Part shown: piece after piece, positions 3,640 to 57,126 of the stretch
Numbering within the stretch: the stretch's first letter is position 1
Layout: every line of letters starts with the position of its first letter
DNA from: Verrucomicrobiota bacterium
Lineage (GTDB): Bacteria > Verrucomicrobiota > Verrucomicrobiia > Limisphaerales > UBA8199
Assembly: GCA_035358715.1 (NCBI GenBank)
Contig: DAOPPX010000001.1
Span: 274,412-338,411 of the forward strand
Direction: 5' to 3'
DNA: 64,000 nt
Made by a program: the position numbers and the translations under genes
The notes under the pieces: generated by a model
Told to the model about the DNA's origin: nothing
The model's input: only the letters and a program-made list of their open reading frames with translations
Databases searched by the model: none

Positions 3640-3661
3640 GTCGGGTGGGGGATCGGGCCGC

Positions 3662-36060: not shown

Positions 36061-36131
36061 TCGGGGCGGCAACTCGGGGTCGGCAGTCGCGTGAACGCGT
36101 GCTGTTTTGACACAAGCCTGTTTGGCCGGGT

Positions 36132-41328: not shown

Positions 41329-43872
41329 CTACACCCTGACGCCTTTGGGATAGCGTTTGGCAAACTCGATGAGCGCGTCGGTGAGCGACATGCCCGAGCT
41401 GAGCAGCTTCTCAAATTCCAGTTTGTCCGCCGGTCGCGTGGTGGTGGTCGCGTAGAGCAGCGGCGGCATGGTCAATTCCAGGATCACGCGCCGTGTGCCC
41501 TGGGTGCGCTTCTGAATCATGTAACACTGGGAGTACTGGCCCGGCTCAGTGACGAGGCTGCGCAGGGCCAGCAGATCCCCCTCGTGCCCCTGGATGTAGC
41601 GCACCGTCTGCTCAGCCACATTGGCCGACAATTTGAAAAGGAAGAAGGTGCTGATGGAATCGCGGATGGCCTCGCTGTTCTTGAGAGAGCCCCATTCGGT
41701 GATCCCCTGGGAAATGAACATGAGGGCAATGCCGTACTTCCGGTAGGTGCGCGCCGCCTCCTCCAGGAATTGCGCGCAGACGGGCGAGGACATGAGGTTC
41801 CAGCCTTCGTCGATGAAGAACATTTTGTCCTGCGCGGCAAACTCCCGCGTCATCGTCTGGGCGAACCGGATCGCGACCATCATCATGATCGGCCCGACGT
41901 CGCGGTCGTCCTTGCGGCGCGTGAAATCAAACACCGTGAAGGGATTGCGCGCGGTGACCATGCTGTTGCCGTCGAAGAGATTCCCGTAGCTGCCCCCTTT
42001 GCACCAGATCCGCAGCCGGTTGCCGAGCGACTTGGCGTTCGCGGAGGTCTGATTGGCCAGGATCTTCTGCACATCGCTCAGGATCACTTCCTCGCCGCGG
42101 CCGACCTTGGCCTGATACGCTTGTCGGATGCATTCGGTCAACAGCATCCGGTCCTCCTTGGAGAGTTGGTCGCGGTCGTTCTCGATGACCATGCGCTCCA
42201 CCAGCAGTGCGTTCTGGATGATCTCCTCCTCGCCGGGGATGGTGCCCGGCGGCGCGTAGAGGAAGTTCATGCGGTTGCGCTCGCTGTCCAGGTCCATCGT
42301 CAGGTAATTGCCGCCCAGCACGTGGCAGAGCTTGTAATACGAGCCGCCGATGTCGATGCCGACACACCGCCCGCCGTTGGCCATTTTCTGCAAAAGGATA
42401 AGGTTCGTGGCCACGGATTTGCCCGAGCCGGACGAGCCCGCGATCATCAGATTATAGTTGTTGAGGGAAACCTGGTCATGGGGGTCAAAATTGTACAGCG
42501 TCCCATACCGGGTGGTGAAGAGACACGCCGGCCGGGCTTCAGATCCGTCGGGCAGGTACAACGCCGGCAACAGCGTGGCCAGTTGGCTGGAGGAGTACGC
42601 GTGGTCCCGGTAACGGTCCTTGTCACCGAGATAGCCGGGCGTGGTCTTGATGAAGTAAGGGAAAATGGGCGTGGTCTCGTGGATCCAGGTCATCCCCTCG
42701 TTCTGTTGCCCAAATTGGCGTTGCTCCAGCACGAGGTTGTTGAGCATGTCCAGGTCGGTTGCCCAGAGATGAATGGAGTGCGACGCAACCCAAGGCCGAT
42801 CCCGGCCGGTGGCTAGTTCGTCAATCTCCGCTTCGATCTCCTCGAGTGTCCGACGAAGCTCCGGTTGCTTGCCTACGCGCCCAAGCACCTGCAGGCGGCG
42901 GTTCTTGAGCTTCCGCAACCGCTTGGTCGTATCGCTGCTGTGCGCTTCGACGCAAAAAGCCCCGGAAACAAAACCCGGCGCCAGCATCTGCGGCAGAAGC
43001 ATGCCGAATTGCAACTGGCTTGGTGGTTCGTGCAGGAAGACGATGCGCCGGTAAAGTCCGTCCATCTGGAGCCAGCCCTGTTTCGGATTCACTTCGAGTT
43101 GGCTGTGAACGAAATAGGAGGTCGCCGGCCTGGGTTCGACCGGGTCGAAAGCCGGGAGTCGAGTTCCCAGTGCGTAAGACCTGGGGTTGTACCACCAATA
43201 CAAAGTCTCAAGGATTTCATCCGAGGGCATGAGCGAGGTGTGAATCCCGGCCGCCTTCAAGACCGCCTGGGCCTGCTGGGTCTGTTTTGAAAGCAAGTTG
43301 ACAGCGGTGTTCCACTCTTCCTCTGTCATGTTCGCTGCCTCTTCCATTGACAACTCGAACGTGTCGCGAAGAAAGTTCGAAATACGGTTGATCCAATGTT
43401 CCTTGGGGCTCAGCTTCCGATGCCGCTTGATTCTCTCCGAAAACTCGACGACCGGTTCGATGCCGATGAAGATGAAACACGAGTAGCGCCGGAGCTCGTT
43501 CGAGGCCGCTTTGTCCCGGTAATGCTGCCCGATGTCCCGTTTGAACTGCGCCAACAGCGGATTGCCTTGGGGCATCGTCAGCAGGTAGTCGTCCAGCAGT
43601 TCGTCGTACTGGTTGTGGCAGATCGTGAGGAATTGCAAGCGCGCCTCACCGTCACCCATGACCGCCATCTGGTTAAGCATGCTGCTGAAGTTGTTGTGCA
43701 ACTCGTCGGCCTGTTCGCTGGAGGCGAACAGCGTGTCGGGGTACTGCACCCTGAGGCCCACGGCCAGCGACATGTCCTGCGCGACGATAACGTGGTTGTC
43801 GATCCAGGCGATGGGAATCTCCTCATCGAGGCACACCCCGGATAACCGGTTCATCCGCTCGTACTGCAGCAT
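41329..43872 (-). CDS. virB4: VirB4/TraC/TrbE-family conjugative T4SS ATPase
   Basis: 847 aa. Walker A MIAGSSGSGKSVATN and Walker B MFFIDEGWNLM. The N-terminal domain is typical of VirB4. Confidence 0.9.
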   Translation of the reverse strand: MLQYERMNRLSGVCLDEEIPIAWIDNHVIVAQDMSLAVGLRVQYPDTLFASSEQADELHNNFSSMLNQMAVMGDGEARLQFLTICHNQYDELLDDYLLTMPQGNPLLAQFKRDIGQHYRDKAASNELRRYSCFIFIGIEPVVEFSERIKRHRKLSPKEHWINRISNFLRDTFELSMEEAANMTEEEWNTAVNLLSKQTQQAQAVLKAAGIHTSLMPSDEILETLYWWYNPRSYALGTRLPAFDPVEPRPATSYFVHSQLEVNPKQGWLQMDGLYRRIVFLHEPPSQLQFGMLLPQMLAPGFVSGAFCVEAHSSDTTKRLRKLKNRRLQVLGRVGKQPELRRTLEEIEAEIDELATGRDRPWVASHSIHLWATDLDMLNNLVLEQRQFGQQNEGMTWIHETTPIFPYFIKTTPGYLGDKDRYRDHAYSSSQLATLLPALYLPDGSEARPACLFTTRYGTLYNFDPHDQVSLNNYNLMIAGSSGSGKSVATNLILLQKMANGGRCVGIDIGGSYYKLCHVLGGNYLTMDLDSERNRMNFLYAPPGTIPGEEEIIQNALLVERMVIENDRDQLSKEDRMLLTECIRQAYQAKVGRGEEVILSDVQKILANQTSANAKSLGNRLRIWCKGGSYGNLFDGNSMVTARNPFTVFDFTRRKDDRDVGPIMMMVAIRFAQTMTREFAAQDKMFFIDEGWNLMSSPVCAQFLEEAARTYRKYGIALMFISQGITEWGSLKNSEAIRDSISTFFLFKLSANVAEQTVRYIQGHEGDLLALRSLVTEPGQYSQCYMIQKRTQGTRRVILELTMPPLLYATTTTRPADKLEFEKLLSSGMSLTDALIEFAKRYPKGVRV

Positions 43873-45261: not shown

Positions 45262-46911
45262 TCAGGACGAGCCAAGATTGAAATCTTCCAGCCTGACCCC
45301 AAAGTGCTCTTTGAAGCCGCGATCAGCCCATGGTCTGCAGAATTCAGCAGTATAGAGGGGGTGCATCCAGGTGAAATCGAGGTTGTAGGGCCCATCCTCG
45401 ATAATCCACTGCCTGATCAGGTCATACAGCAGGACCCAGTAGTAGAAGGAGTTGAACGTATCGTAGAGGTTCTTTTCTGAAGCCCCCTCGTAGAGCGCCG
45501 GGCGAATCTCGCCGTTGGGATGGACCAGAAACGGCGGCTGGTGCTTGTTAAAGATCCCGAGCGATTCCTGCAGGTTGACGTTGGCCCCCTTGCGCTCGGC
45601 GAGATACATCGCCGGCCAGCAAAAGAACTCCGGCCTGCGAACCCGCTGCTCGGCGAATCGGAGGTGCTTCGCAAAGCACACCCTGAGCGGCAGGTTCTCG
45701 TCTGAAAAACTGAAGGAGCTCTCCTGCTCCAGAAGTTCGGCAAAGCCGGGGGTCCGCGACGCCCACCTCATCAGCTCACTGGCGATTACCGCCGGCGTCT
45801 CGCAGGCGATCGACTTGCACAGGGCCGTGGCGATCTCCAGATACGCGTTCGCGTCGCATTTTTCGACTGCACCCCGCAAGGTCGGTTGCTGTGCTATTTG
45901 GGTGCAGAACCAGGAGAACCGTATACCCGGATCCACTGACTCTATGAGCGATTCAAAATGCCGGATGTCGAACGGGTAGCCATCGCTCGGATTTAGGGCC
46001 AGGTCGCAAACGAGGAGAAAGAGTAATACCTCTGCGGAAACCGGGGTCGCAGGCCACCCCCAGCCCGTGAGCCGCAGAAACTTCTCGAATGCTTCGACGT
46101 AAACCCCGCCGAGCATGCCCAGGCTCCGGAACTCGTTCCACGAGAGGTTGGGCGTCGTTGCGAGGTGGAGATACTGCAGTTGGCTGAATCGGGCCTGCCC
46201 CTCGAATATCTGATAAGCTCCGATGTCTGTGGTGCGGACCGTCGAGCCGTAGCAATACCCGTCCACGCGCCGGTCGCGCAAGTCGGCAGCAGGGTCCTCC
46301 CAGGACTTCGGGTGAGGGACGCACCCATGGTCGGGGTCAAACGTGGCCCCGAGCAGCAAGAGCAGGTTCGCCAGCCCGATAATGATAGAATGCCCCTGCG
46401 ATTCGAAGTAAGGGCTCCCCAATACGTCCGACAGGACCATAGGATTCATCAGGATGCGGCGGTTGAACTCCAGGTCGTACCAGTTGTTCACGATTCGGTT
46501 GAGGCAAGCCTCAACGTCGGTGCCATACCTCCGCGGAGGGCCTTGGGTTAGACACTTAACCGGCTTTTGTGGGCCGACGTTCTGCAGCGCGAATTGAAGG
46601 TGCTTGTAATTGATGTGGCACTGTATGGGGGGAGACAGGGAGAGGAGTAACCCCGTTGTGCTACCGATGTGCTGCCACCAATGCAGGGTCTCATGAAAGT
46701 AGGTCGAGAAGGCATCAACTAGGCCGTAATCCCGAGAGCTCGAGATCCCGCCCGGATGTTGCTCAAGCCGTTCGTGCATGTCTTGGCGCAGGCGCACCAC
46801 GAAACGGAACGGATGATAACTGCCACGGCTCCGGTTCGCGGAACTGCTATCAGGGACTGCCCATCCCAACCGTTCGGCGGATTGAAGGCCCTCACCCCTA
46901 GCCAGTTTCAT
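45262..46911 (-). CDS. large hypothetical protein with HExxH motif (549 aa)
   Basis: STYFHETLHWWQHIGSTTG (codons at about 46681-46695). No other family recognised. Confidence 0.7.
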   Translation of the reverse strand: MKLARGEGLQSAERLGWAVPDSSSANRSRGSYHPFRFVVRLRQDMHERLEQHPGGISSSRDYGLVDAFSTYFHETLHWWQHIGSTTGLLLSLSPPIQCHINYKHLQFALQNVGPQKPVKCLTQGPPRRYGTDVEACLNRIVNNWYDLEFNRRILMNPMVLSDVLGSPYFESQGHSIIIGLANLLLLLGATFDPDHGCVPHPKSWEDPAADLRDRRVDGYCYGSTVRTTDIGAYQIFEGQARFSQLQYLHLATTPNLSWNEFRSLGMLGGVYVEAFEKFLRLTGWGWPATPVSAEVLLFLLVCDLALNPSDGYPFDIRHFESLIESVDPGIRFSWFCTQIAQQPTLRGAVEKCDANAYLEIATALCKSIACETPAVIASELMRWASRTPGFAELLEQESSFSFSDENLPLRVCFAKHLRFAEQRVRRPEFFCWPAMYLAERKGANVNLQESLGIFNKHQPPFLVHPNGEIRPALYEGASEKNLYDTFNSFYYWVLLYDLIRQWIIEDGPYNLDFTWMHPLYTAEFCRPWADRGFKEHFGVRLEDFNLGSS

Positions 46912-46956: not shown

Positions 46957-47931
46957 TCAGGTTGTCGCCCGCTTCGCCCTGAGTTTTCCAATGCGCCCTT
47001 CCGACAAAACCGTGTCGTATCGGTGAATGAACTCCAACTGCTTCGCGAGGTTTCCAGAGTAGGTTTTCGTCCAGGGGCCCACCGCTTCGATGACCGCGTT
47101 ATAAAGGGCCTCGAAAGAGAACATTTTCGTCCCGCTACCCCCATCGACGCGAATTTTCTGGGAAGTGGGATCGAAATGGAAAGAAAGTGGAGGTGTCTTG
47201 CCCGCCAACACTTTTCGGGAGTGCGGGTTCGTCATGTGCAAAAGGGAATTCCTTAGCTCCCACAACTCATCCGGGGTCACGCCGACCGCAGCGAGGACCG
47301 CATACTTGGAAAGCCAGGTCACAAAGTTCCCCGCGACATCCCCGAGGTCCAGATAGGCCGCCGAATCAACGAAGGACATGAGGAGCTTCATCGCCGAAAC
47401 GTAATACCGGTGCGCGTAAAGAAGCTTGATGGCTTCGATAAAGTCGTCTCCGAGCAGATCGTCGACATTCAAGCCAGCCGGCGTGAGGTACGCAGACAGA
47501 TAATCGACCCTGCTTACGAGGCCACCAAATTGCCTCGAAAGCACCACCTGAGCAGACTGCGGATCAGCGCAAACCAAGTCCTCGTTCTGCGGCTTTCCGT
47601 CCACGATAATCGTGGTGCAAAATATCGGGTTCTGCGAGGCCTGAACGGCCTCCAGGGGTTCCGCAAAAATATGAAGGGGCTTCCCCGTTCGCGCTAGGTA
47701 CCAGTATGCCTCTAGGGGCAGGCCCTGCGTCGCCGCAATCCCGAGCCAAGCCTTGATATTGGCGACGGGAACGGGATAACGCGGCGCCTTGGTGAAATCT
47801 GCATCAACTCGGCTCTTCAGAGCCGCGATAATTTGGTCGTCGCTGCCCTCCAACTCATGTGCGACGACACCAAGCTCTTTGACGGTGTCGTTTTCCACAT
47901 ACAGGAACAGGTTGACGGCCCTTTCGCTCAT
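46957..47931 (-). CDS. protein with C-terminal HEPN-like domain (Rx4H motif)
   Basis: ELRNSLLHM (R..H codons at 47236-47253) preceded by long helices FIEAIKLLYAHRYYVSAMKLLMSFVDSAAYL. The open frame continues upstream to 48009. See the frameshift finding. Confidence 0.6.
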   Translation of the reverse strand: MSERAVNLFLYVENDTVKELGVVAHELEGSDDQIIAALKSRVDADFTKAPRYPVPVANIKAWLGIAATQGLPLEAYWYLARTGKPLHIFAEPLEAVQASQNPIFCTTIIVDGKPQNEDLVCADPQSAQVVLSRQFGGLVSRVDYLSAYLTPAGLNVDDLLGDDFIEAIKLLYAHRYYVSAMKLLMSFVDSAAYLDLGDVAGNFVTWLSKYAVLAAVGVTPDELWELRNSLLHMTNPHSRKVLAGKTPPLSFHFDPTSQKIRVDGGSGTKMFSFEALYNAVIEAVGPWTKTYSGNLAKQLEFIHRYDTVLSEGRIGKLRAKRATT

Positions 47932-47969
47932 GGAAGTAGTTAAGGGGACCGCCGAAAGTTCGGCAAGTG

Positions 47970-48164
47970 TCAACTGGGCCCTTTGGGAATGTAGCCAATA
48001 CTTCCCCAATAGGAGATGCCGCCTCTAATTCTCTCGACCTTTAGCAATTGTTCCCACTCCACCTGATCCACAGTTGAGATTCGTCCATTGACGAGTGTGT
48101 TGATAGCGGAATCCGCAACCATTGCGATTCCTGCTTCAGATAAATCTGCAAGTAATAAGGACAT
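47970..48164 (-). CDS. 64-aa ORF, possibly the displaced N-terminus of the HEPN-like gene
   Basis: ATG start, MSLLLADLSEAGIAMVADSAINT..GGISYWGSIGYIPKGPS*. It overlaps the 5' part of the downstream open frame by 40 nt in another frame. Confidence 0.35.
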   Translation of the reverse strand: MSLLLADLSEAGIAMVADSAINTLVNGRISTVDQVEWEQLLKVERIRGGISYWGSIGYIPKGPS

Positions 48165-48280
48165 ACAATTTGCCGCTTTCCGGTGACAAAAGCAAAAAAG
48201 CGTTGCGTCTCGGAGTCAAGAGCGCGATGAGCCGATACAGCTCAGGTCGCGGCCATTTTCGTGACCGATATTATACTACC

Positions 48281-48300
48281 GGCGGGGTATTATTCCCGCC
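48281..48300 (-). terminator. hairpin downstream of the caspase-helicase gene, followed by a TATAAT box (48270-48275, minus strand)
   Basis: GGCGGG-8 nt-CCCGCC. There is no U-tract, so the terminator function is uncertain. Confidence 0.3.
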
Positions 48301-48461
48301 AGTTTACGGGCTGAATTATGGGCATCGGAGAAGCATTTTACCAGGTCTGCAGGAACCTTGCCATCAGCAACAGGGCGTCGATCTCGGTATCGCCACAAGG
48401 GCATGTCCCACGAGCTTGAAAAATCGAAAAATCAACGTTCTCAAGCTACCACAGGCAACTT

Positions 48462-51400
48462 TCATTGAGGATCCGGCGGTGTCGGCATCGGCAAAGCATC
48501 ACTAAGTGCGGGCCTGGCTGCCTTAAGCTTGTCGATTGCGTGTCTCACAAGCTGCCTTTTCGCGTCACTATTTATAACACGAACAAACGCTTCATCATCA
48601 AGCCCCTCGAAAGCCTCCACCGTTGTTAAGCCCGCACGCTTGAGAGCCAGATAATCTCCACGCTCTAATCCCCGCTTCACCTGTCTTGCCAAGTAAATCA
48701 TGTCACTGTGAATACCCAATTCCAGCCGCGTATTGAGATCATCAAGCTCACAGCTCGATCCGCGACCGTCGCTCGAAACCAGCGTACCGATCCGAGCTAC
48801 GACCTCGATGAGATCGCGGGTGCGCTCAGCTGAAGCGCGAATCGGACCGGCGGCATTATCTGCTGGCAGATGCTGCAGGAGCGAAGCCTCCATACGATTT
48901 AGTTCAACCCCTTCAATCCACATCAAAACCGCGGAGAGGCGCTTGCATCGTGCCGTATGGCTCGGATCGTCGGTCGCCGCAAATTCCACAAGAAGCGAAT
49001 AGGGCAAGCGTTGCTCCTGGATCGCCCCCTGCCACCGCTGACGTTCCTTAATCGATTTCTTATGAACGGGGAAAATGACGTCGTCCAACTCCACCGTCAC
49101 CTGTGCAGCCGCGAGGAGGACTCTTTCAACAAGCTCAGCGCTGGGCAGACCACGGAGCGCTCGTGCGACTCGTGTCACGCTTTCCACTTGGATACCAAGC
49201 TCACCGGCCACTTTACCGAGCTGAGTCAGCCGATAGCGGCCTTCGACTTGCTCCACAAGCCCCGCTCCACCTAACTGCGCGACCGCGCTTGAGATTGCCT
49301 GAACACTGAAGGCCTGGCCCTGCTGGTGGTGCGCGAATGTCGATTGGATGAAATCGACGAGCTCCTGCTCGGAAAGACTATTCACCTTCGAGGCACTTGC
49401 GGTCGCGAGCACTCGGCAAATAAGGGAGAGGGGATCATGGTCCGAAAAGCGCGAGACCAGCGCCTCAGGTTTTCCCGCCACATAGTTCGTCCACAGCTGG
49501 TAAGCATCGGACGGGGTCGGAGCAATCAAGAAGGATTTGCCTTTCGGCGTAAAGCCAAGCCGGCCGGCGCGCCCAACCATGTTTTTGTATTCGGCCACGC
49601 TATACGGCGAGTCAGGATGCTCCAGGCCAGCAATCACCACCGACCAGGCCGGAGTATTGACCCCCATGGCAAGCGTCGTCGTCGCCACCAGCACTTTGAG
49701 AGAGCTGTTCGGATCCCTGAACGTGGCCTCGATTGCTTGTCGTTCTTCGCGGTCAAGATCCGCATTATGGAAGGCAACACCGTGCTGCAAACATCCGCGC
49801 AACTGCGTCGAGGCGACAGATGGATCACCTGCGGGGAGTTGAGCCAAGGTTTCGGTCGCCGCATGAAGGCCTAAACTGTTCTTCAAATATTCCGCAGTTG
49901 CTCGGACAATCGGTTTCGTTTCTCGAAACACGATGACCTTCTCCCCCGCGCCTACAAGCTGCCGCACCAACGGGATGATGATGTCTTGCGATGTGCCCTT
50001 GCGGAATTCCGGGCGCACGTAATTATTGAGCTGCTGCTCTGTGCCATCTGCCGCGATGTAACGGAACGTCCCGCTCATATCGAGCAGACCCTCTTCCAGC
50101 GGAACCGGGCGTTTCTCACTGCGCAACAGCCGGGCATCCAGCCAGGACTCAAAACCGTTGGTGTCCCCGATAACGGCGGAAAGCGCGATTATCTGCGGTT
50201 CGACACCCAACATTCTTTGCGACTTCAATAGCGTGAGCAGAAATTCAAGATTGGCTCCGCGGTTCAGGTCCGTGATCATCTGCACTTCGTCGACCACCAC
50301 GACGCCAACCTGGCGCATGATATGTGGTGCGACCAGCGCGAGCGCAGCAAACCGTTCGTACGTCAGCAACGCGATATCGAACTTACCACGGAGCAGCGCA
50401 TTGTTGTCGTCGGAAATCTCGCCGGTAGATCGGATGATACGCACACCGAACGGCCCATATTTTGACGTGAACTCAGCGTACTTATCGTTCACGAGCGCCC
50501 GCAGCGGCAACAGTATGTAGCTGCGTTCCCCTTTCAGGTTACGGTACAACGCTGCCAATTCGCCGATCATCGTCTTTCCCGATGACGTTGGCGCAGACAC
50601 AACGAGATGCTGACCTTCAAACAAGCCCGCCTTGTTGATGGCCTCCTGCTGCAATTCGTTGAGGGACGGAATCGCACCACTCCAAATACCGATCAATGGC
50701 TGGGGAAACCCAAATCCGGTAAGATCCTTGATGTTCGAGCTGACGGAAATTGGAGCTGGGTCGGGGAAAAACCGTCTAAAAATCGCGCCTGGGATCAACA
50801 CTGGAAACAGCAACTCGCCTTCAATCACGCCCTTTACGGTTGGCTCTTGTTCGTGGCGAATCTGACGAGCGGCGTTTACCACCGACCGGGTCACGAACTC
50901 AATCAATGATAAGAGCGGAATCTTGCCAGCCTTGACGATTTCCGGGGCACCTTTGAACGCCTGACATATAAAGAAGGTAAACAAGCTGTGCCCGCGGCGC
51001 CGATCTTCCATTGCTTCCTGCTTCGCTGTGGCAGCGGTGAAAATGAGGCGTCCCTTGCCGCTAATCTTACTCAGCAAGGCATCCGCCGAAGCCGTATCCT
51101 TCGTGGCCGTAGGAGCATGGAAGACCTTGGCGCCAGCCCCCCCGGCGAAGCAACAGTCCAAGAGGAGCACGAGATTTGACACGGGAATACGCGAAAAAAG
51201 ATTCGTGAGTTCATCCAGATGAATTGTGGTTGAATCGAGTGCGAGCGGGTCGGCTTCGTGTGAGATGAGGTGATGGGAGTCCGAGCCATGGCCAGAAAAC
51301 CCAATCACAACGATATCATCCGGTTTTGCTTCTTGAAGCTCCACAAGTGCCTTGAGAATCGCCGATTTGGTAGCCTGCTCGTTTGTAAGAAGAACGGATT

Positions 51401-51527
51401 CCGAGCTGCCAAATGCGTCACAAAAAAGTCCGTGGAGTGCCTGGGCGTCGCGAACCGAACACGAGAGGTTTGAAATTAGCGGGGATCGATACCGATCAAT
51501 GCCGATGAATAGGCTTTTGAATGACAT
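48462..51527 (-). CDS. caspase-like (peptidase C14) domain fused to a Hel308/Ski2-type DEAD/DEAH helicase
   Basis: From ATG 51527. Caspase His/Cys dyad IGFSGHG (His80) and LLLDCCFAGG (Cys125/126). Helicase motifs VVSAPTSSGKT, VVVDEVQMI, LVATTTLAMGVNTPA, MVGRAGRLG. C-terminal WH/ratchet/HhH-like region. An alternative TTG start at 51566 lies 1 nt after the ImmA stop. Confidence 0.85.
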   Translation of the reverse strand: MSFKSLFIGIDRYRSPLISNLSCSVRDAQALHGLFCDAFGSSESVLLTNEQATKSAILKALVELQEAKPDDIVVIGFSGHGSDSHHLISHEADPLALDSTTIHLDELTNLFSRIPVSNLVLLLDCCFAGGAGAKVFHAPTATKDTASADALLSKISGKGRLIFTAATAKQEAMEDRRRGHSLFTFFICQAFKGAPEIVKAGKIPLLSLIEFVTRSVVNAARQIRHEQEPTVKGVIEGELLFPVLIPGAIFRRFFPDPAPISVSSNIKDLTGFGFPQPLIGIWSGAIPSLNELQQEAINKAGLFEGQHLVVSAPTSSGKTMIGELAALYRNLKGERSYILLPLRALVNDKYAEFTSKYGPFGVRIIRSTGEISDDNNALLRGKFDIALLTYERFAALALVAPHIMRQVGVVVVDEVQMITDLNRGANLEFLLTLLKSQRMLGVEPQIIALSAVIGDTNGFESWLDARLLRSEKRPVPLEEGLLDMSGTFRYIAADGTEQQLNNYVRPEFRKGTSQDIIIPLVRQLVGAGEKVIVFRETKPIVRATAEYLKNSLGLHAATETLAQLPAGDPSVASTQLRGCLQHGVAFHNADLDREERQAIEATFRDPNSSLKVLVATTTLAMGVNTPAWSVVIAGLEHPDSPYSVAEYKNMVGRAGRLGFTPKGKSFLIAPTPSDAYQLWTNYVAGKPEALVSRFSDHDPLSLICRVLATASASKVNSLSEQELVDFIQSTFAHHQQGQAFSVQAISSAVAQLGGAGLVEQVEGRYRLTQLGKVAGELGIQVESVTRVARALRGLPSAELVERVLLAAAQVTVELDDVIFPVHKKSIKERQRWQGAIQEQRLPYSLLVEFAATDDPSHTARCKRLSAVLMWIEGVELNRMEASLLQHLPADNAAGPIRASAERTRDLIEVVARIGTLVSSDGRGSSCELDDLNTRLELGIHSDMIYLARQVKRGLERGDYLALKRAGLTTVEAFEGLDDEAFVRVINSDAKRQLVRHAIDKLKAARPALSDALPMPTPPDPQ

Positions 51528-51567
51528 TTGTCGCTGCTGATTCTCGTGGGGTTTGCAGAAATTCAAG

Positions 51568-52503
51568 TCAGATTGCGATGACGGGCACCGTTACAGCCCG
51601 TTTCCCAAGGTGCCTTGCAAATGTGAGGGCTTCATGGCCGTTGAAAAAGGTTTCAAAGGCGAAGACGTGCTCGTCTCCATTGTCATCGGCTAGAACGATC
51701 TCGCTTTCGCCCAAGGGCCCACCTCTTTGAGATCCACAGTATGAAACGATGCAGTCGAAAATCTCGTGCTCGCTCGCTTGGCCGAACCGAGCGGCGAAAG
51801 CCTCGGATTGAATAAAATGACGACAGGGATTCGCCCCATCGAAATCGTCTGGCCGGCGACGGATGTGAGGATGGTCGGAAATGACGCCTAACAGGGGTTG
51901 CTCGGAACCGAGAAGCTCAACTGCGCGCCAGAGGGTGCAAGTTTGGGTGTTACCAAAGGATTTCGCATACTTTTGCAGAGTCCGAAAACCCAGCGGCGAA
52001 CTCCGAGCCTCCTCGACGAATCGGTCGCGCAGAAAAATTAGCTGACCGGCACCATAGTTGGCTTCAGTTTCGATTTTCGCCCGACAGGAGGCGGTTGGGG
52101 TTATCTCATTGTCGCCCAGCAGGACTGGGTGGTGCCAGAGGAGCAATTGGTGGATGGTTTCGTGTGCCTCAAGCCAGCGATGTTTCAGTTTAGGCACCTC
52201 CTCGTCGATCAGAATGCGTTTCAGATCCGGAGCACACAGCGCGCGGAGCTTAAATTTCTGTATGGCTTCGCGGATGAACATCGGACGGGCAAAGGATTGC
52301 ATCACGCCGACGCGGATCTTGTGGACAGCACGCGCCAGCAGACCGGCCTCTTCACGTTGAAAGTAGCCAAGATCAATTTTCAGCCAGTCACGCACCACCT
52401 CAATCCGAAGAGGCGGCTCCGGGCGACCAATATCATCGAGAAGGCGATCTACTCGGCGATCGATTTTCTGGCGGACGTGTGAAGCAAGAATGAGGCTTTT
52501 CAT
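51568..52503 (-). CDS. ImmA/IrrE-family (COG2856) zinc metallopeptidase
   Basis: HETIHQLLLWH (HExxH) and downstream ETEANYGAGQLIFL. ATGA overlap with the XRE gene. Confidence 0.85.
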   Translation of the reverse strand: MKSLILASHVRQKIDRRVDRLLDDIGRPEPPLRIEVVRDWLKIDLGYFQREEAGLLARAVHKIRVGVMQSFARPMFIREAIQKFKLRALCAPDLKRILIDEEVPKLKHRWLEAHETIHQLLLWHHPVLLGDNEITPTASCRAKIETEANYGAGQLIFLRDRFVEEARSSPLGFRTLQKYAKSFGNTQTCTLWRAVELLGSEQPLLGVISDHPHIRRRPDDFDGANPCRHFIQSEAFAARFGQASEHEIFDCIVSYCGSQRGGPLGESEIVLADDNGDEHVFAFETFFNGHEALTFARHLGKRAVTVPVIAI

Positions 52504-52979
52504 TCCTTGCCACGTTCATCGTCCAGGAGCGTGGCGATATAAGCCTCGAGCGCGTGCTGCTCTTCTGGGGAAAGCGGCCCGGTCGGTTTCGCATCGGTGG
52601 CAAAGCGGACAGCCTCTTTGTTTAGGGGAAGCTTTTTAGCAACGGCAAGACCGGCAGCCTGCATCATCTTTGTAACTGAAAGGCCAAAAACCTGAGCTAG
52701 CCCGTAGACCGTGCTCGGTTCGGGTTCGTGGTATGGGTCGTCTTCGATAGCTTGCAGTTCCTCGGTTGCCGCTTCAGCTCGTGCTGCGAGTTGTTCGATT
52801 GAAAGCCCCAGTTTCCTGCGTAACAGGAGGACAAGTCTTCCAAATGTGAGGTGGGTGAATACCGAGATCATCGGCGTGGCAGACTGAATGGCGGTGGGCG
52901 GACTGCCCGCACCAACTTCGCAGTCGCCTTCCAGTTTGGCTGCGCGGATGAACCAATCTTTGGGCAGGTTCAGTTTCAT
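52500..52979 (-). CDS. XRE-family helix-turn-helix regulator
   Basis: FGRLVLLLRRKLGLSIEQLAARAEAATEELQAIEDD..VYGLAQVFGLSV. ATGA overlap with the GNAT gene. Confidence 0.8.
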   Translation of the reverse strand: MKLNLPKDWFIRAAKLEGDCEVGAGSPPTAIQSATPMISVFTHLTFGRLVLLLRRKLGLSIEQLAARAEAATEELQAIEDDPYHEPEPSTVYGLAQVFGLSVTKMMQAAGLAVAKKLPLNKEAVRFATDAKPTGPLSPEEQHALEAYIATLLDDERGKE

Positions 52980-53578
52980 TTTGTCAGAGGTTTTGCGAGA
53001 AAGGCGTTTGCCTGCTCGCTGGTGAATTCATAATACGTTAGATTCTGTTTCTGTGGGTCGGGTCCGATGATTGTCATGCCGCAGTTCTTCTCATAAAATC
53101 TCCTTGCACCTGGGAGGGAGTGCAGGCCGATTCGCCCTTTGAAGCCCTCGTCGATGCTGAGCTGCACGGCAGCCGCTATTAATGTTCCGCCAACCGCCTT
53201 AAACCGCTTTGGTGTCTGAATCGCAGAACGATTCCAAGGGGCGACGGCAAGATAATCCACATACAGGACTGAACGGGTGCCTTTGTTGGAGAGGCTTGCA
53301 AGATCAACGAGCATGGCGCCCTGGAGGCCGCCTTCGCAGGTAATGCAAAAACCGCGCTGGCCAAACGTCTGATGCGCGTGAGAAAGTTTATCCCGCCAAT
53401 TCCAGTGCCAATCTTCCGGCCACCTGTCTCGCGGCGTGGTGCGCTTCACTTGCTCAACGACCGGCGCCCAGGTTGCTTCTAGTTGCTCCAAGTGCGGTTT
53501 GTCCAGGTCGTCCAGGAGCACTGCTTCGACGAGCGATTCGTCAGCGCCGCGGACGAGGTAAATGACTGACGCTTCCAT
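52976..53578 (-). CDS. GNAT-family acetyltransferase (toxin-like partner of the RHH gene)
   Basis: VLYVDYLAVAPWNR..RFKAVGGTLIAAAVQLSIDEGFKGRIGLHSLPGARRFYEKNCGM. This shows the GNAT beta4-alpha3 / AcCoA-loop pattern. Confidence 0.7.
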   Translation of the reverse strand: MEASVIYLVRGADESLVEAVLLDDLDKPHLEQLEATWAPVVEQVKRTTPRDRWPEDWHWNWRDKLSHAHQTFGQRGFCITCEGGLQGAMLVDLASLSNKGTRSVLYVDYLAVAPWNRSAIQTPKRFKAVGGTLIAAAVQLSIDEGFKGRIGLHSLPGARRFYEKNCGMTIIGPDPQKQNLTYYEFTSEQANAFLAKPLTK

Positions 53579-53582
53579 GGTT

Positions 53583-53795
53583 TCAGACGAGCATGAGCTC
53601 AGACTTAACTTTATTCACGTCGTCTTCGATGAAGAGCTTTTTCCCCTCGCGCATTCGCTGATCCACTAATTGGTAGAGGCGCAGGGCTTGTCGGATAATC
53701 GCGGTCTTGTTCAGATCCTTTTGGCCAGCGAGTGCCTCCAGCGCATCCATCTCAGCGTCGGTCAGGTTCAGTGTCATGGTGCGTTTAGTACTCAT
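53583..53795 (-). CDS. ribbon-helix-helix (CopG/Arc-type) protein
   Basis: MTLNLTDAEMDALEALAGQKDLNKTAIIRQALRLYQ gives a beta-strand plus two helices. 70 aa, 4 nt upstream of the GNAT gene. Confidence 0.75.
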   Translation of the reverse strand: MSTKRTMTLNLTDAEMDALEALAGQKDLNKTAIIRQALRLYQLVDQRMREGKKLFIEDDVNKVKSELMLV

Positions 53796-53805
53796 ATCTC
53801 AACAC

Positions 53806-53835
53806 AAAATAGCCACAAAACATATATGCAGTCAA
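53806..53835 (-). promoter_or_regulatory. sigma70-like promoter candidate for the RHH-led operon
   Basis: Minus strand reads TTGACT-18 nt-TATTTT, 10 nt before the ATG at 53795. The intergenic region is AT-rich. Confidence 0.4.
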
Positions 53836-53853
53836 CATATTTTAATTAAATAT

Positions 53854-53882
53854 TTGACGCATGGCCATTATTGGTATATTCT
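53854..53882 (+). promoter_or_regulatory. sigma70-like promoter candidate for the Bil-type operon
   Basis: TTGACG-15 nt-TATATT (or 17 nt-TATTCT), ending 8-10 nt before the ATG at 53890. Confidence 0.4.
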
Positions 53883-53889
53883 GTGGCCA

Positions 53890-54174
53890 ATGAATACATA
53901 TTCATCAATTACTGAGGGCCACGGCAGCGCCGTGGCGGAACCTGACAACAACGCTGGCCAGAAGTTCTTCGTGAACATCGAAGGCCAGGAATATCCGTGG
54001 GATAAACCCACGATCACCGTCCCGGAAATCCGGCAGCTGGGGAATCTCCCCGCCGACCAGCCGGTAATTGAAGAGGACGCGGAAGGCCGTGAGCGCACGC
54101 TCGCGGAAAACGAAGTGGTAACCATTAAACCCGGCCATCGACACGGCCGCGCACCTAAGTACAAGCGGGGTTAG
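53890..54174 (+). CDS. bilA: ubiquitin-like (multiubiquitin/beta-grasp) protein ending in Gly
   Basis: From the internal ATG: KFFVNIEGQEYPWDKPTITVPEIRQLGNLP..LAENEVVTIKPGHRHGRAPKYKRG*. A C-terminal Gly is immediately followed by the stop codon. Confidence 0.75.
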   Translation: MNTYSSITEGHGSAVAEPDNNAGQKFFVNIEGQEYPWDKPTITVPEIRQLGNLPADQPVIEEDAEGRERTLAENEVVTIKPGHRHGRAPKYKRG

Positions 54175-54176
54175 CT

Positions 54177-54587
54177 ATGCACGAGCGGGTTCGAGAAGAA
54201 ACCGAGTGGCTTAGAGCGCAATTCCCCTACTTGCGGCATGGGGACCAGCTTGACTGGGTCTTAATCCCGGAGCTGGCCCTCCCGCCAGGGCGATTCAATA
54301 AGGTGAGCACCAAGCTGCTGTTCCGAATCCCGGTAGGCTACCCACAGACCGGCCCGGACAACTTTTTTGTGGATGGTGACCTGCGGCTTAAGGACGGTTC
54401 GACTCCGCAGGCGTTCAATGTTGGGCCCCAATCGAGCAGTGGTCCTGCGCCAATCGAAGGAAGTTGGGGCTGGTTTTCATGGCATCCTCAGGCTTGGCGT
54501 CCAGCAGCGACGATCGAAGGTGGCGATAATCTCAAAGGGTTCATTCGGAGTATTAACCTCTGTTTGCGCGGAGAGGAGTCGGCATGA
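54177..54587 (+). CDS. bilB: prokaryotic E2-like protein (E2 family E-like)
   Basis: LLFRIPVGYPQTGPDNFFVD..GSWGWFSWHP. Position between the Ubl and JAB genes. The protein has a single Cys (INLCLRG). Confidence 0.65.
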   Translation: MHERVREETEWLRAQFPYLRHGDQLDWVLIPELALPPGRFNKVSTKLLFRIPVGYPQTGPDNFFVDGDLRLKDGSTPQAFNVGPQSSSGPAPIEGSWGWFSWHPQAWRPAATIEGGDNLKGFIRSINLCLRGEESA

Positions 54588-55132
54588 ACAATCACATTGT
54601 CATCCCTTCCCGCATGGTCCAAGCGTTGAGGGAACACTTCTTCAAGAACGAGCTTGAGCAGGGAGCGTTCTTATTCGCCCAAGTGTCGCAAGAGGGCGTG
54701 GATTTGACTCTCTTGGCTGCCGATTACTATCTGGTTCCTGCACGAGGCTGGGCAGTGCAAATGGAGGTTTACCTGGAAATGAGGGATTCCGAACGCGGCA
54801 AGATCATGAAGTTGGCCCGGGAAAAGAATCTGTGCGCGATTGACTGCCACTCACACCCGCACGCGGGTGACGATGTGTGGTTCTCGCCAAGTGACGTCGT
54901 CGGCATCAGCGATTTTGCGGAGTACGCAAAGTGGAAACTCGACCGCAAGCCTTTCGCGGCGATGGTCTGGGGCGAGGAGTCGGTAGACGCGGTCCTGTGG
55001 CATGGAGATTTCACATCTGCTGAACGGGTAAGGGCCGTGACGGTTGCTGGAAACCCGAATCAGACAATTATCCCAACGGGCTCATGGTTTTGTGGGCCGA
55101 GGGGGAAAAACAGATTTAAATATTATGAATAA
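54584..55132 (+). CDS. bilC: JAB/MPN (JAMM) metalloisopeptidase
   Basis: ELEQGAFLFA (Glu) and CHSHPHAGDDVWFSPSD (HxH..SxxD). ATGA overlap with the E2 gene. Confidence 0.85.
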   Translation: MNNHIVIPSRMVQALREHFFKNELEQGAFLFAQVSQEGVDLTLLAADYYLVPARGWAVQMEVYLEMRDSERGKIMKLAREKNLCAIDCHSHPHAGDDVWFSPSDVVGISDFAEYAKWKLDRKPFAAMVWGEESVDAVLWHGDFTSAERVRAVTVAGNPNQTIIPTGSWFCGPRGKNRFKYYE

Positions 55133-56003
55133 CAGTCGTTTCGCTCGGCAAGTCCTCATGTTTGGTGAGGAAGGACAGAGAAAAATTGAAACAGAAAGGG
55201 TCGGGGTAGTCGGCGCGGGCGGGCTTGGCTCTCAAATGGGCCAGGCGCTCGCGTATGCTGGCGTCCTTAACTATGGCGTAATTGACGACGACGTTCTCGA
55301 CGAAACCAACATGAACCGGGAGGCTGGCGGTTTTCCATCCGATGTCGGCCGTCTCAAAGTTGAGGTCGTGAGAGAACACATCCTCAAGATTATCCCCGAA
55401 GCAAAAGTGAAAGCGATTCCATGCAATCTCAGGACGCGGGAGGCAATTGAGTGTCTGATCGGATGCTCGGCGATTTTTGGATGCCTTGATCACGATGGGC
55501 CTCGGTTGGTGCTAACGGAGCTCGCATCAGCTTACCGGGTTCCGCTTTTCGATGTGGCGACCGAAATTTTTCCGGAAATGGCCGGGCAACCCTTCGACTT
55601 TGGTGGACGTGTCGTCGTGGCAAGGCCGGGAGATTATTGTCTCCTTTGTGCCGACCAACTAGACCGTGATCTCGCGAAGGAGGAGTTGGAAACACCTGAA
55701 ATACGTGCCGCTCGTCTGAAACATGGATACGGGCTCGGGAGTGAAACGCCTGCCCCGGCGGTTTTCACTCTGAATGGGGTTCTCGCGAATCTCGCGGTGA
55801 TGGAGTTCTTGGTGATGGTAACAGGTATCCGGGAGCCCGCCCGCCGGCTGACGTATAAGGGAATGCGAGGCGTGGTGACAAACAGCACCGATCGGGGCAG
55901 GGAAGACTGCTTCACCTGCAAGTGCCTCTGTGGGCAGCGCGAAAAAGCGAACATCTGGCGCTATTTGCTGCCACAGGCAGCCGGGAGGAGTCTGACAGAG
56001 TGA
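55125..56003 (+). CDS. bilD: ThiF/MoeB-type E1-like adenylating enzyme
   Basis: From ATG 55125: RFARQVLMFGEEGQRKIETERVGVVGAGGLGSQMGQALAYAGV..GVIDDDVLDETNMNR. Cys pairs CLLC and CFTCKC. 8-nt overlap with the JAB gene. Confidence 0.85.
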   Translation: MNNSRFARQVLMFGEEGQRKIETERVGVVGAGGLGSQMGQALAYAGVLNYGVIDDDVLDETNMNREAGGFPSDVGRLKVEVVREHILKIIPEAKVKAIPCNLRTREAIECLIGCSAIFGCLDHDGPRLVLTELASAYRVPLFDVATEIFPEMAGQPFDFGGRVVVARPGDYCLLCADQLDRDLAKEELETPEIRAARLKHGYGLGSETPAPAVFTLNGVLANLAVMEFLVMVTGIREPARRLTYKGMRGVVTNSTDRGREDCFTCKCLCGQREKANIWRYLLPQAAGRSLTE

Positions 56004-56078
56004 GAGGTGGCCAGCCCACCGCTTGTTCCACGAAGAAATGGAATCAGCGTCTGGAATCCGTTCGTCTTGCACCGGAAA

Positions 56079-56291
56079 CTAATCGAGACCTTTCAGGTGC
56101 GTGGCTAGTGCGTTGGGACGAGGTAATCGAGCAGTGCGGATGTGCCGCGATTTGCATACTTGTCCAGTCAGGAGGCAGGCCTGAATCTTAGCAGACCATT
56201 GGAGAAGGGGCATAACCTGGGTTACCCGGGCCCTCGAGATTCCTTCCCAGGCAGCGATTCTGGCCTTCGTCAGCCGGGTACCGGATCGCAA
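56079..56291 (-). pseudogene. fragment of a small HTH DNA-binding gene
   Basis: TKARIAAWEGISRARVTQVMPLLQWSAKIQ resembles the ..EGISRARVTQ..LL.L.P.IQ.. HTH proteins often found near recombinases (recalled from memory). The N-terminus appears to be missing. Confidence 0.3.
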
Positions 56292-56305
56292 TCCTGCCTG
56301 CGTGG

Positions 56306-56508
56306 ATGAGATTTGCCGGGAAGCTGCTGCCCGTATCTTATGTGTTCGAAGGGCTGAGAGCGCTTATCGCCGGGGGCGCCGTACCCGGAACCTCGGCTTG
56401 GGCCTGGCCGTGGCGTATGTGCTTTTGGCGTGTTGGTTCTTCACACGCGTTAATCGAAACGCCGTCCGAACCGTCCTCGCGCGCAATAGCGCCGAGAACC
56501 TGAGCTGA
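56306..56508 (+). pseudogene. frameshifted C-terminal remnant of an ABC-2-type transporter permease
   Basis: Frame 1 reads KLLPVSYVFEGLRALIAGG. After a shift near 56390 frame 2 reads LGLGLAVAYVLLACWFFTRV. No upstream part of the gene is present. Confidence 0.35.
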
Positions 56509-56646
56509 GCCCGGACAGTTGCTTTGATGTCGGCCTGGGATCAGCGACTTCGCCTGCCTCGACTGCTTTGACATGCCCCCAACTGGTTTGAATGTGTGAT
56601 GCACAGAGCTTTGGTTTAATATCCCGGTTCGATACATCGTCGCGAA

Positions 56647-57126
56647 ATGAAGAAAACTGAATTGATAAAGCACATTATCGGCAGCCTGACCAAAAGTCTC
56701 GAGGTTCTGGAAAAGGCCGCCCGAGCCTCGCATGAGGAAGCCACCCACGAGAGCAGCAGGGCGGAGAGCAAGTACGACACTCGCGGGCTCGAAGCTGCCT
56801 ATCTCGCCGGCGGTCAGGCCAGACAAGCGAAGGAAATCCTGGACTCCATCAAGGCTTACGAAGCGCTAGCGACCAGGGACTTCGCCCCCGGCGAGCCGAT
56901 TGAGTTGACCGCCCTGGTGGAACTGGATGCCGAAGGCATACATTCAGCCTATTTTATCGGGCCGAGGAACGGCGGCTTGGAAATCAAGCATCGGCGTAAG
57001 GAGATCATGGTGATCACGCCTCAGTCGCCGCTGGGTCAAACCTTAATAGGCAGGAAAGCGGGCCAGCGTTGGGCGGCCAAGCTTGGCGGTTCGACCGTGA
57101 AATATCATATTGTCTCGGTTTCGTGA
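56647..57126 (+). CDS. GreA/GreB-family-like protein (coiled-coil N-domain plus Gre C-terminal-like domain)
   Basis: ESKYDTRGLEAAYLAGGQARQ in the N-terminal hairpin. C-terminal VITPQSPLGQTLIGRKAGQ..VKYHIVSV. Confidence 0.7.
   Translation: MKKTELIKHIIGSLTKSLEVLEKAARASHEEATHESSRAESKYDTRGLEAAYLAGGQARQAKEILDSIKAYEALATRDFAPGEPIELTALVELDAEGIHSAYFIGPRNGGLEIKHRRKEIMVITPQSPLGQTLIGRKAGQRWAAKLGGSTVKYHIVSVS

Follow-up and report, generated by a model that had tools for sequence, protein, structure and literature searches.

In the defence systems Hachiman and HamMAB, the helicase HamB gates the HamA effector on the sensing of DNA, and HamB together with a protease-HamA activates a pro-nuclease (PMC12278908, PMC12799240). 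The archaeal relative of this helicase, Hel308, has been stated to be absent from bacteria (PMC12278908). Here we describe a gene that joins a caspase domain to a Hel308-type helicase in a single polypeptide, encoded on contig DAOPPX010000001.1 of a Verrucomicrobiota bacterium (assembly GCA_035358715.1); the window, by which we mean the whole stretch of 64,000 nucleotides (nt) analysed, covers positions 274,412 to 338,411 of that contig. The full-text literature searched holds no description of a caspase-helicase or caspase-Hel308 defence system, HamMAB and canu being the nearest, and PADLOC v2 has no full-length model for the fusion. It therefore matches no system named in either source, in agreement with an earlier note, made from the letters of this DNA, which had put the fusion forward as the last gene of an undescribed five-gene defence operon. 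We consider it fairly probable that the locus is instead a composite of independent modules, namely a Bub-type ubiquitin-like conjugation operon (module A), a four-gene cassette (module B) and the fusion (module C), lying on a low-GC island of a conjugative element, and that module C is a self-contained candidate defence protein. The fusion and its upstream junction comprise the following parts.

48462-51527, minus strand: caspase::Hel308 fusion gene, 1021 amino acids (aa), ATG start at 51527, stop codon 48462-48464 (list of open reading frames, ORFs, and the public 1021-aa call P0001)
48462-51566, minus strand: long ORF containing the fusion (ORF list)
50778-51527, minus strand: peptidase C14 (caspase/orthocaspase) domain at the fusion N-terminus, about aa 1-250, with His80 in FSGHG and Cys126 in DCCFAGG
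49458-50675, minus strand: superfamily 2 helicase core, RecA1 and RecA2, about aa 285-690, with Walker A APTSSGKT, DEVQ and GRAGR
48465-49457, minus strand: Hel308-type C-terminal domains (winged helix, ratchet and helix-hairpin-helix domain 5), about aa 691-1021 (profile alignment and Foldseek)
51528-51567, minus strand: 40-nt spacer at the cassette/fusion junction, between the end of homology to contig L095 (51568) and the start of homology to the closest fusion loci (51527)

The fusion is real and intact, and the five motifs listed above had all been quoted correctly. Its Pfam matches are Peptidase_C14 (8.4e-15), DEAD (3e-23) and Helicase_C (4.5e-13), with 55.5 bits for the first of them (PF00656), whose gathering score is 21.4. 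The N-terminus is a C14 domain, with the caspase-hemoglobinase fold and a His-Cys dyad; the NCBIfam model caspase_w_EACC1 also matches it (7.5e-22; 77.8 bits, below the cut-off of 140), and in a PDB profile search, run with a profile made from 32 fusion homologues, the T. brucei metacaspase 4afr is matched at E = 2.2e-6. Dozens of 50%-identity clusters of ~1000-aa proteins share this N-terminal domain. The caspase dyad, described as intact in the window, is kept in homologues as well: H80 and C126 are invariant in 78 of 78 genome-derived sequences, as are GKT317-319, D413, Q416, R653 and R656 on the helicase side, with C125 kept in 75 and E414 in 77. We take C126 to be the likely nucleophile, by analogy with the metacaspase D-x-C-H-S-G motif.

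The helicase moiety covers positions 21-703 of the 739 in a Hel308-type NCBIfam model, and misses the Hel308 equivalog cut-offs (NF002654, 293 bits vs 887; NF040935 helicase_Hel308, 222 vs 1200). The top solved structures in the profile search are archaeal Hjm/Hel308 enzymes (7e-76 to 3.6e-72), followed by the PolQ helicase domain (8e-63, query 268-1014), and the HamB structure 8vx9 is matched over the core only (E = 2.9e-32). An AlphaFold model of the whole protein has a mean per-residue confidence (pLDDT) of 85.8 and a predicted template-modelling score (pTM) of 0.73, the loop behind the catalytic Cys (aa 129-133) being of low confidence. Because the profile alignment to A. fulgidus Hel308 spans query 284-998 and Foldseek aligns the model to full-length Hel308 chains with template-modelling (TM) scores, by target, of 0.82-0.88 over ~740-770 columns, the helicase is a complete five-domain Hel308-type enzyme, RecA1-RecA2-WH-ratchet-HhH (WH, winged helix; HhH, helix-hairpin-helix), and not a HamB. 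The same two comparisons bear out the WH/ratchet/HhH-like C-terminus proposed earlier from the letters.

More than 120 full-length homologues are found at 48% identity or above, and relatives are encoded in at least 308 species genomes. The 80 best loci come from Acidobacteriota, Myxococcota, Alphaproteobacteria, Bacteroidota, Cyanobacteria, Actinomycetota, Planctomycetota, Chloroflexota, the candidate phyla radiation and others, and were dereplicated to 55 lineages for neighbour analysis. The gene is carried by 17 plasmids, six of them conjugative, always annotated merely as 'DEAD/DEAH box helicase', and one plasmid copy adjoins a TIR-TIR-caspase cluster; there is no match among 50,697 phage records. 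A fusion-bearing element of ~15 kb is shared at ~99-99.99% identity between five copies (in Afipia, Bosea, Sphingomonas and Xanthobacter) and a Bradyrhizobium copy, which indicates very recent transfer between genera or possibly cross-contamination of metagenome-assembled genomes or assemblies. On this element (positions 1-15000 of L036, the Bradyrhizobium copy, and of L038, L041, L043, L063 and L072) the fusion is accompanied by a type II Bub operon and by a gene for a 1151-aa protein. Between L036 and L051, homology is limited to the fusion gene plus ~270 nt upstream. The distribution of the fusion is patchy and driven by horizontal transfer, without conserved repair partners, and the unit of conservation is the fusion gene alone.

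All-against-all clustering of neighbours over the 55 lineages gives no conserved partner, no family being common to more than five of them (~10%), and many copies have opposite-strand genes on both flanks. This autonomy of the fusion gene therefore makes it an independent single-gene module rather than a part of one conserved five-gene system. Within two genes of the fusion lie prokaryotic Argonaute, type I, II and III restriction-modification genes, a cyclase with a 2TM effector of the cyclic-oligonucleotide-based anti-phage signalling system (CBASS), AbiEii, reverse transcriptase, SngC, MADS mad2, TIR/ThsB, GmrSD, Mrr, DndB, SLFN, integrases and transposases; in many genomes the fusion is accordingly found among defence and mobile-element genes, in agreement with the defence role proposed earlier. 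Two candidate companions were rejected. A gene of ~200 aa upstream is confined to one subclade (L026, L049, L092, L015), and three neighbours with C14, DEAD and Helicase_C matches, considered as tandem paralogues, are probably a split fusion (e.g. L058) and unrelated helicases; L002, L059 and L076 do have large genes downstream, which are unrelated.

Upstream of the fusion, on the same strand, lies the four-gene cassette, and beyond it an intergenic region.

51568-52503, minus strand: CapP/ImmA/IrrE-like M78 metallopeptidase, 311 aa, HETIH motif, cassette gene 4 (PADLOC capP 4.2e-9)
52500-52979, minus strand: CapH-like XRE-family helix-turn-helix (HTH) repressor, 159 aa, cassette gene 3 (Pfam HTH_19 9.4e-9)
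52976-53578, minus strand: divergent GNAT-fold protein, 200 aa, cassette gene 2 (predicted fold)
53583-53795, minus strand: ribbon-helix-helix (RHH) protein, 70 aa, cassette gene 1 (Pfam RHH_1 1.4e-5)
53796-53889, no strand: AT-rich intergenic region of 94 bp from which the cassette and the Bub-type operon diverge, with promoter-like hexamer pairs on both strands

The earlier note had read these four genes and the fusion as one integrated system, with an RHH/GNAT toxin-antitoxin pair, an XRE/ImmA switch for the fusion and the caspase-helicase as effector. As a description of the layout it holds: all five minus-strand ORFs are present where they had been placed (ORF list), and the sequence, read directly, has the RHH stop TGA, four nucleotides (AACC) and the GNAT ATG at the first junction, ATGA overlaps at the GNAT/XRE and XRE/ImmA junctions, and a TTG at 1 nt and an ATG at 40 nt after the ImmA stop. 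The fusion starts at the second of these, ATG 51527, because its homologues begin there (their consensus opens at the Met of this codon, and the public call P0001 is 1021 aa) and because nucleotide homology in five of seven fusion loci starts nearby. The proposed translational coupling from ImmA to the fusion is thereby replaced by a 40-nt gap.

This gap is a junction of its own. Contig L095 aligns with window 54991-51568 as one block at 89.7% nucleotide identity, containing the Bub genes and the entire cassette, and the homology stops exactly at the capP-like stop codon, with unrelated sequence beyond; conversely, the nucleotide homology that the window shares with the seven fusion loci does not extend beyond coding sequence, and for the five just mentioned it starts within a few bases of ATG 51527. 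Since the one homology ends at 51568 and the other starts at 51527, positions 51528-51567 are where two modules with separate histories meet. Module C would, in this genome, have landed 40 nt downstream of capP. A simple sigma-70 and terminator scan finds no promoter-like or terminator-like site in 51528-51567. Because no terminator-like site separates capP from the fusion, it is plausible that the fusion is transcribed in part by read-through from the cassette promoter, so that control by CapH/CapP would be local and facultative.

For the five-gene system there thus speak the tight spacing and same-strand order in the window and the lack of a terminator-like site before the fusion, together with an XRE-ImmA-fusion order in L074, divergent CapH/CapP in L019 and L047, and damage-responsive regulators beside close homologues (LexA-like in L090 and L091, a 549-aa M78 protein in L089). 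The wider sampling points the other way. Homologues of the window's XRE/ImmA pair occur near the fusion only in L019/L047 and L074. Pfam, run on 89 small ORFs upstream of fusions, matches Peptidase_M78 twice and Peptidase_S24, LexA_DNA_bind, HTH_31 and HTH_3 once each, which brings an XRE/M78 or LexA-type regulator to ~4 of 55 lineages; the pair is missing in ~51. The expectation set beforehand, that homologous fusions keep the regulatory pair, therefore largely fails, and the switch dedicated to the fusion, as put forward earlier, is not supported; nor does the sampling support an association of caspase-helicase fusions with XRE/ImmA pairs across genomes. The closest fusions compared (L001, L023 and L002, at 65-75% aa identity) have no four-gene cassette, none of 80 metagenomic cassette loci has the fusion downstream, L095 lacks the fusion, with its breakpoint at the capP stop codon, and the cassette has a conserved partner of another kind, a divergent Bub or CBASS operon. 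Taken together, these counts make one five-gene system highly improbable, and we retain a fusion that stands alone. The regulators of the close homologues (72-74% identity) are of different DNA-damage types: the LexA-like S24 repressor lies directly upstream on the same strand (L090 5243-5869, L091 3844-4488), and the 549-aa M78 peptidase protein of L089 is divergently oriented (2986-4635).

The cassette has an identity of its own. Its RHH and XRE genes are confirmed by the Pfam matches listed above, and the ImmA/IrrE-type HExxH peptidase by the PADLOC capP match, the HETIH motif and homologues, many of which carry PF06114 and are named ImmA/IrrE or DUF955; Pfam Peptidase_M78 itself reaches only 0.039 on the window protein. 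The call of GNAT for the 200-aa protein stands at the level of fold and falls at the level of sequence. Pfam, NCBIfam, PADLOC, phmmer against PDB and a 26-sequence profile against PDB return no family for it, and no solved GNAT toxin either. Its AlphaFold2 model (pLDDT 89.8) finds, in Foldseek, top matches that are nearly all GNAT acetyltransferases (E = 5e-7 and weaker, TM ~0.5-0.6), with the toxins AtaT, KacT and GmvT as mid-ranked structural matches (TM 0.42-0.49), and NCBI labels it a GNAT family protein.

Homologues of two cassette proteins, GNAT-fold and ImmA-like, led to further cassette loci, and a metagenome scan with the GNAT-fold profile gave the 80 loci. Where contig and gene calls permit, they share the order RHH (70 aa), GNAT-fold (~210 aa), HTH_19 (~160 aa) and M78-type (~310 aa), which is invariant in the 80 metagenomic loci wherever the contig reaches; the 70-aa gene stands at position 1 in nearly all related loci on contigs long enough, and the M78-type gene always follows the HTH gene. 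The RHH and GNAT genes are always embedded in this cassette with CapH-CapP after them, which speaks against a free-standing TacAT-type toxin-antitoxin pair. We have recorded the cassette at window 51568-53795 (minus strand), in L081-L088 and in L095-L174. It is divergent from a Bub operon in ~20 of the 80 metagenomic loci, from a Multi_ubiq/Prok-E2_E/JAB-ThiF(/BubE) operon in L085-L088 (L084 having a related JAB-containing cluster), and from type III CBASS in the Bradyrhizobium loci L081-L083. The RHH, GNAT-fold, CapH-like and CapP-like genes are thus a fixed cassette of the neighbouring Bub operon, separate from the fusion.

This assignment agrees with what is known of CapH and CapP, which are present together in 31% of Bub operons (PMC11601596) and accompany hundreds of CBASS systems (10.1101/2022.04.27.489752); at Bil and CBASS loci they lie upstream on the opposite strand and share a promoter region with their target (PMC10557695; 10.1101/2022.04.27.489752). 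The window pair has the same composition, an XRE-family HTH gene followed by a gene for an M78/DUF955 HExxH peptidase, and the same position, upstream of and divergent from the Bub-type operon across a shared region of 94 bp, as published for CapH/CapP (and likewise akin to ImmR/ImmA and DdrO/IrrE). This divergent shared promoter region points to the Bub operon, rather than to the fusion, as the one that the CapH/CapP-like pair would regulate. The clustering of promoter-like hexamer pairs on both strands of 53796-53889 makes this region, by analogy, the probable site of divergent promoters and operators. In that analogy the CapP-like peptidase would cleave the CapH-like repressor after DNA damage or infection, derepressing the shared promoter region. 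The window pair differs from the published ones in being always preceded by RHH and divergent GNAT-fold genes, and neither an RHH nor an acetyltransferase gene is described with CapH/CapP in the CapH/CapP and Bub literature searched. The re-assignment accordingly sets apart, as a companion of Bub and CBASS operons, a fixed four-gene cassette (RHH-GNAT-CapH-CapP) that the CapH/CapP literature searched does not describe.

The operon on the other side of the shared region reads as follows.

53890-56003, plus strand: Bub/6E-type ubiquitin-like conjugation operon (Pfam, NCBIfam and home-made Bub hidden Markov models, HMMs)
53890-54174, plus strand: Multi_ubiq ubiquitin-like protein, Ubl (Pfam Multi_ubiq 6.6e-7)
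54177-54587, plus strand: Prok-E2_E (Pfam Prok-E2_E 6.2e-12)
54584-55132, plus strand: JAB-like protein (weak Prok-JAB match)
~55125-56003, plus strand: ThiF-type E1 (ThiF-family NCBIfam matches)

With its Multi_ubiq Ubl, Prok-E2_E and ThiF E1, this is an operon of the Bub (6E) type. A typical type I Bub operon has JAB fused to E1 and Ubl to E2; in the window each of the four has a gene of its own, those for JAB and E1 overlapping. The order Ubl-E2-JAB-E1 resembles that of Bil, and the Pfam families Multi_ubiq and Prok-E2_E are those of 6E/Bub. A frameshift in a JAB-E1 gene was considered and rejected, an in-frame ATG at ~55125 overlapping the JAB stop and two coupled genes being the simpler account. 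The serine protease gene BubE (DUF6527) is reported from all Bub operons (PMC11601596); an HMM built from 13 BubE sequences finds none in the window, and there is no suitable ORF downstream of E1.

Bub genes are also the commonest specific neighbour of the fusion, with both Bub types and four arrangements. In the window, as in L074, the regulators are flanked by a divergent Bub operon and, downstream, by the fusion; in L019/L047, CapP-CapH is divergent from Ubl-JAB-E1-fusion; in L069, Ubl-E2-JAB-E1-fusion runs on a single strand; and in L029/L031, Bub is divergent from the fusion. In 15 near-identical alphaproteobacterial loci (L032-L043, L056, L063, L072) a type II Bub operon lies ~525 nt upstream of the fusion. 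The start of the L019 fusion overlaps the JAB-E1 stop by 4 nt, so that it occupies the usual position of BubE. Bub-adjacent fusions are scattered over the fusion tree in at least five separate lineages. BubE is undetected in seven of seven type I Bub loci with a fusion, the window's among them, and present in six of nine type I loci without one; a Fisher estimate on lineages for the absence of BubE against the presence of the fusion gives p ~0.03, on few, non-independent lineages and with a home-made BubE HMM.

These observations are what one would expect if the fusion were a recurrent accessory or effector of Bub conjugation, for example one that replaces BubE where a type I Bub-like operon has none, or that is licensed or restrained by Ubl conjugation. 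Through such a role, if true, Ubl conjugation would be tied to a DNA-sensing protease, and there would be a first handle on the function of Bub operons, for which no phenotype has been found so far (PMC11601596); the Bub papers mention neither helicase nor caspase with these operons. Against it, ~88% of fusion lineages have no Bub nearby, every Bub or cassette locus sampled from outside the fusion set lacks the fusion, and type II Bub loci adjoining a fusion retain BubE. Unrelated systems, moreover, commonly co-localise in defence islands, and the numbers are small, as said. The adjacency may be such co-localisation or may be real coupling; as a general account of the fusion we find a Bub partnership distinctly unlikely, and prefer a protein that functions by itself. 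The repeated adjacency is, even so, a testable lead into the biology of the Bub pathway.

Based on the above data, we propose that the fusion is probably a one-protein anti-phage sensor-plus-killer. The Hel308-type 3'-to-5' helicase moiety would load on DNA that is aberrant, for example at forks, at 3' tails or free ends, or on intermediates of phage replication and recombination. If several molecules were loaded with the help of ATP, or crowded, on a single DNA, their N-terminal caspase domains could come together and be switched on, in the manner of caspases activated by proximity, and the activated protease would cut host and/or phage proteins, leading to growth arrest or abortive infection.

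Several points weigh against this proposal. Activation of the caspase by proximity on DNA is something that we purely infer, and a defence role, helicase activity and proteolysis are predicted functions for every member of the family. Related caspase domains also occur in generic orthocaspases with TPR, WD40 or Ig repeats that are not specifically immune, which leaves the idea of an immune-specific caspase effector unsupported, and which in itself speaks neither for nor against an immune role. The defence-island argument is qualitative and does not include a matched background rate. The recurrence of Bub beside the fusion hints that it possibly does not always act alone, and the simple sigma-70 and terminator scans, which bear on its co-transcription with the cassette, may not suit Verrucomicrobiota.

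Some of the same evidence could be read without immunity, the fusion being then a mobile-element or stress factor, in which the caspase of a repair or replication-restart helicase would, once DNA is damaged, trigger programmed cell death or process proteins of the element, or an addiction or exclusion function of conjugative elements. Hel308 relatives do work in repair at stalled forks (PMC12278908), the gene is carried on conjugative plasmids and in regions resembling integrative conjugative elements, damage-responsive repressors (LexA-like, M78) lie beside some copies, and the kinship with orthocaspases that are not specifically immune fits such a role. The patchy, horizontally driven distribution without conserved repair partners does not, nor do the bona fide defence genes that flank the fusion in many lineages, nor the lack of a match in the phage collection searched (50,697 records). 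A non-immune function is in our view unlikely, and an anti-phage one is the better supported of the two.

The surroundings of the modules fit a mobile setting. GC content between ~47 and 57 kb, which takes in the fusion, the cassette and the Bub operon, is 0.54-0.56 vs ~0.59-0.61 in the flanks, and this dip (47000-57000) is consistent with horizontally acquired cargo. Three genes lie further out.

41329-43872, minus strand: TraG/VirB4-like P-loop ATPase
37412-40840, minus strand: family-A DNA polymerase with 3'-5' exonuclease; it also matches uracil-DNA glycosylase-like proteins, weakly and below threshold
34012-36072, minus strand: DinG-like helicase

Together, the TraG/VirB4-like, polymerase and DinG-like genes point to an integrative conjugative or plasmid-like element as the setting of the window; the 64-kb window contains no tRNA gene or tRNA insertion site. 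After the fusion, beyond a gap of 452 nt, a 549-aa protein (with HETLH, an HExxH-like motif) and a 350-aa protein are encoded at 45262-46911 and 46957-48009 (minus strand). Neither has a Pfam, NCBIfam or PADLOC match or a homologue in any fusion locus, and the two genes may be a further pair of island cargo. Just past the Bub-type operon, 56647-57126 (plus strand) encodes 159 aa in which Pfam finds a domain like the GreA/GreB C-terminus (E = 9.4e-6, just under the gathering score).

How, then, does the fusion compare with described systems? With Hachiman (HamA-HamB) and HamMAB it would share a helicase sensor of the Ski2 superfamily, Hel308-like, that gates a destructive effector, and HamMAB also includes a protease step (PMC12278908, PMC12799240). 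The likeness extends to sequence, PADLOC HamB models matching the helicase core of the fusion at ~1e-30 to 1e-34. The differences are several. The fusion has neither a HamA/DUF1837 partner nor a metallo-beta-lactamase pro-nuclease: PADLOC and Pfam scans of eight neighbouring window genes give no HamA (DUF1837) match, and the HamA family is not among the most frequent neighbour families of the 55 lineages. Its helicase is nearer to archaeal Hel308 and PolQ than to HamB (7e-76 vs 2.9e-32); where HamB has an N-terminal helical bundle, the fusion has its caspase domain; and the protease of HamMAB is trypsin-like, whereas that of the fusion is a caspase joined to the helicase in one polypeptide. 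Without HamA, and with a helicase outside the HamB clade, the fusion lies outside Hachiman.

Archaeal Hel308/Hjm and the helicase domain of metazoan PolQ/HELQ have in common with it the five-domain architecture and the motif set. It differs from these helicases in being bacterial, in carrying an N-terminal caspase and in not being a core repair gene, its occurrence being sporadic and its transfer horizontal. Bacterial caspase-like effectors (the type IV Thoeris caspase, CanA of canu, CHAT/Craspase-type and EACC1-associated proteins) likewise have a switchable protease of the C14 fold with a His/Cys dyad; their activators are nucleotide signals, partner proteins or CRISPR complexes, whereas the sole regulator attached to the caspase of the fusion is a helicase. 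Nhi and Hna offer a parallel in organisation, since each joins a helicase sensor and a destructive effector in a single polypeptide and needs no partner; their effector is a nuclease where that of the fusion is a caspase, and the helicase family differs, being Hel308-type superfamily 2 in the fusion.

If the fusion is indeed a defence protein, a Hel308-type helicase, of a family called missing from bacteria, would survey DNA and directly control a caspase, and the genome-integrity sensing of Hachiman would extend to a proteolytic, caspase-type output. A very widespread family, present in hundreds of species and many phyla and on plasmids, would then join bacterial immunity. Seen beside the closest known systems, the fusion would compress into one polypeptide the principle behind Hachiman and HamMAB, in which an effector is gated by a Ski2-like helicase, and a protease would take the place of the nuclease.

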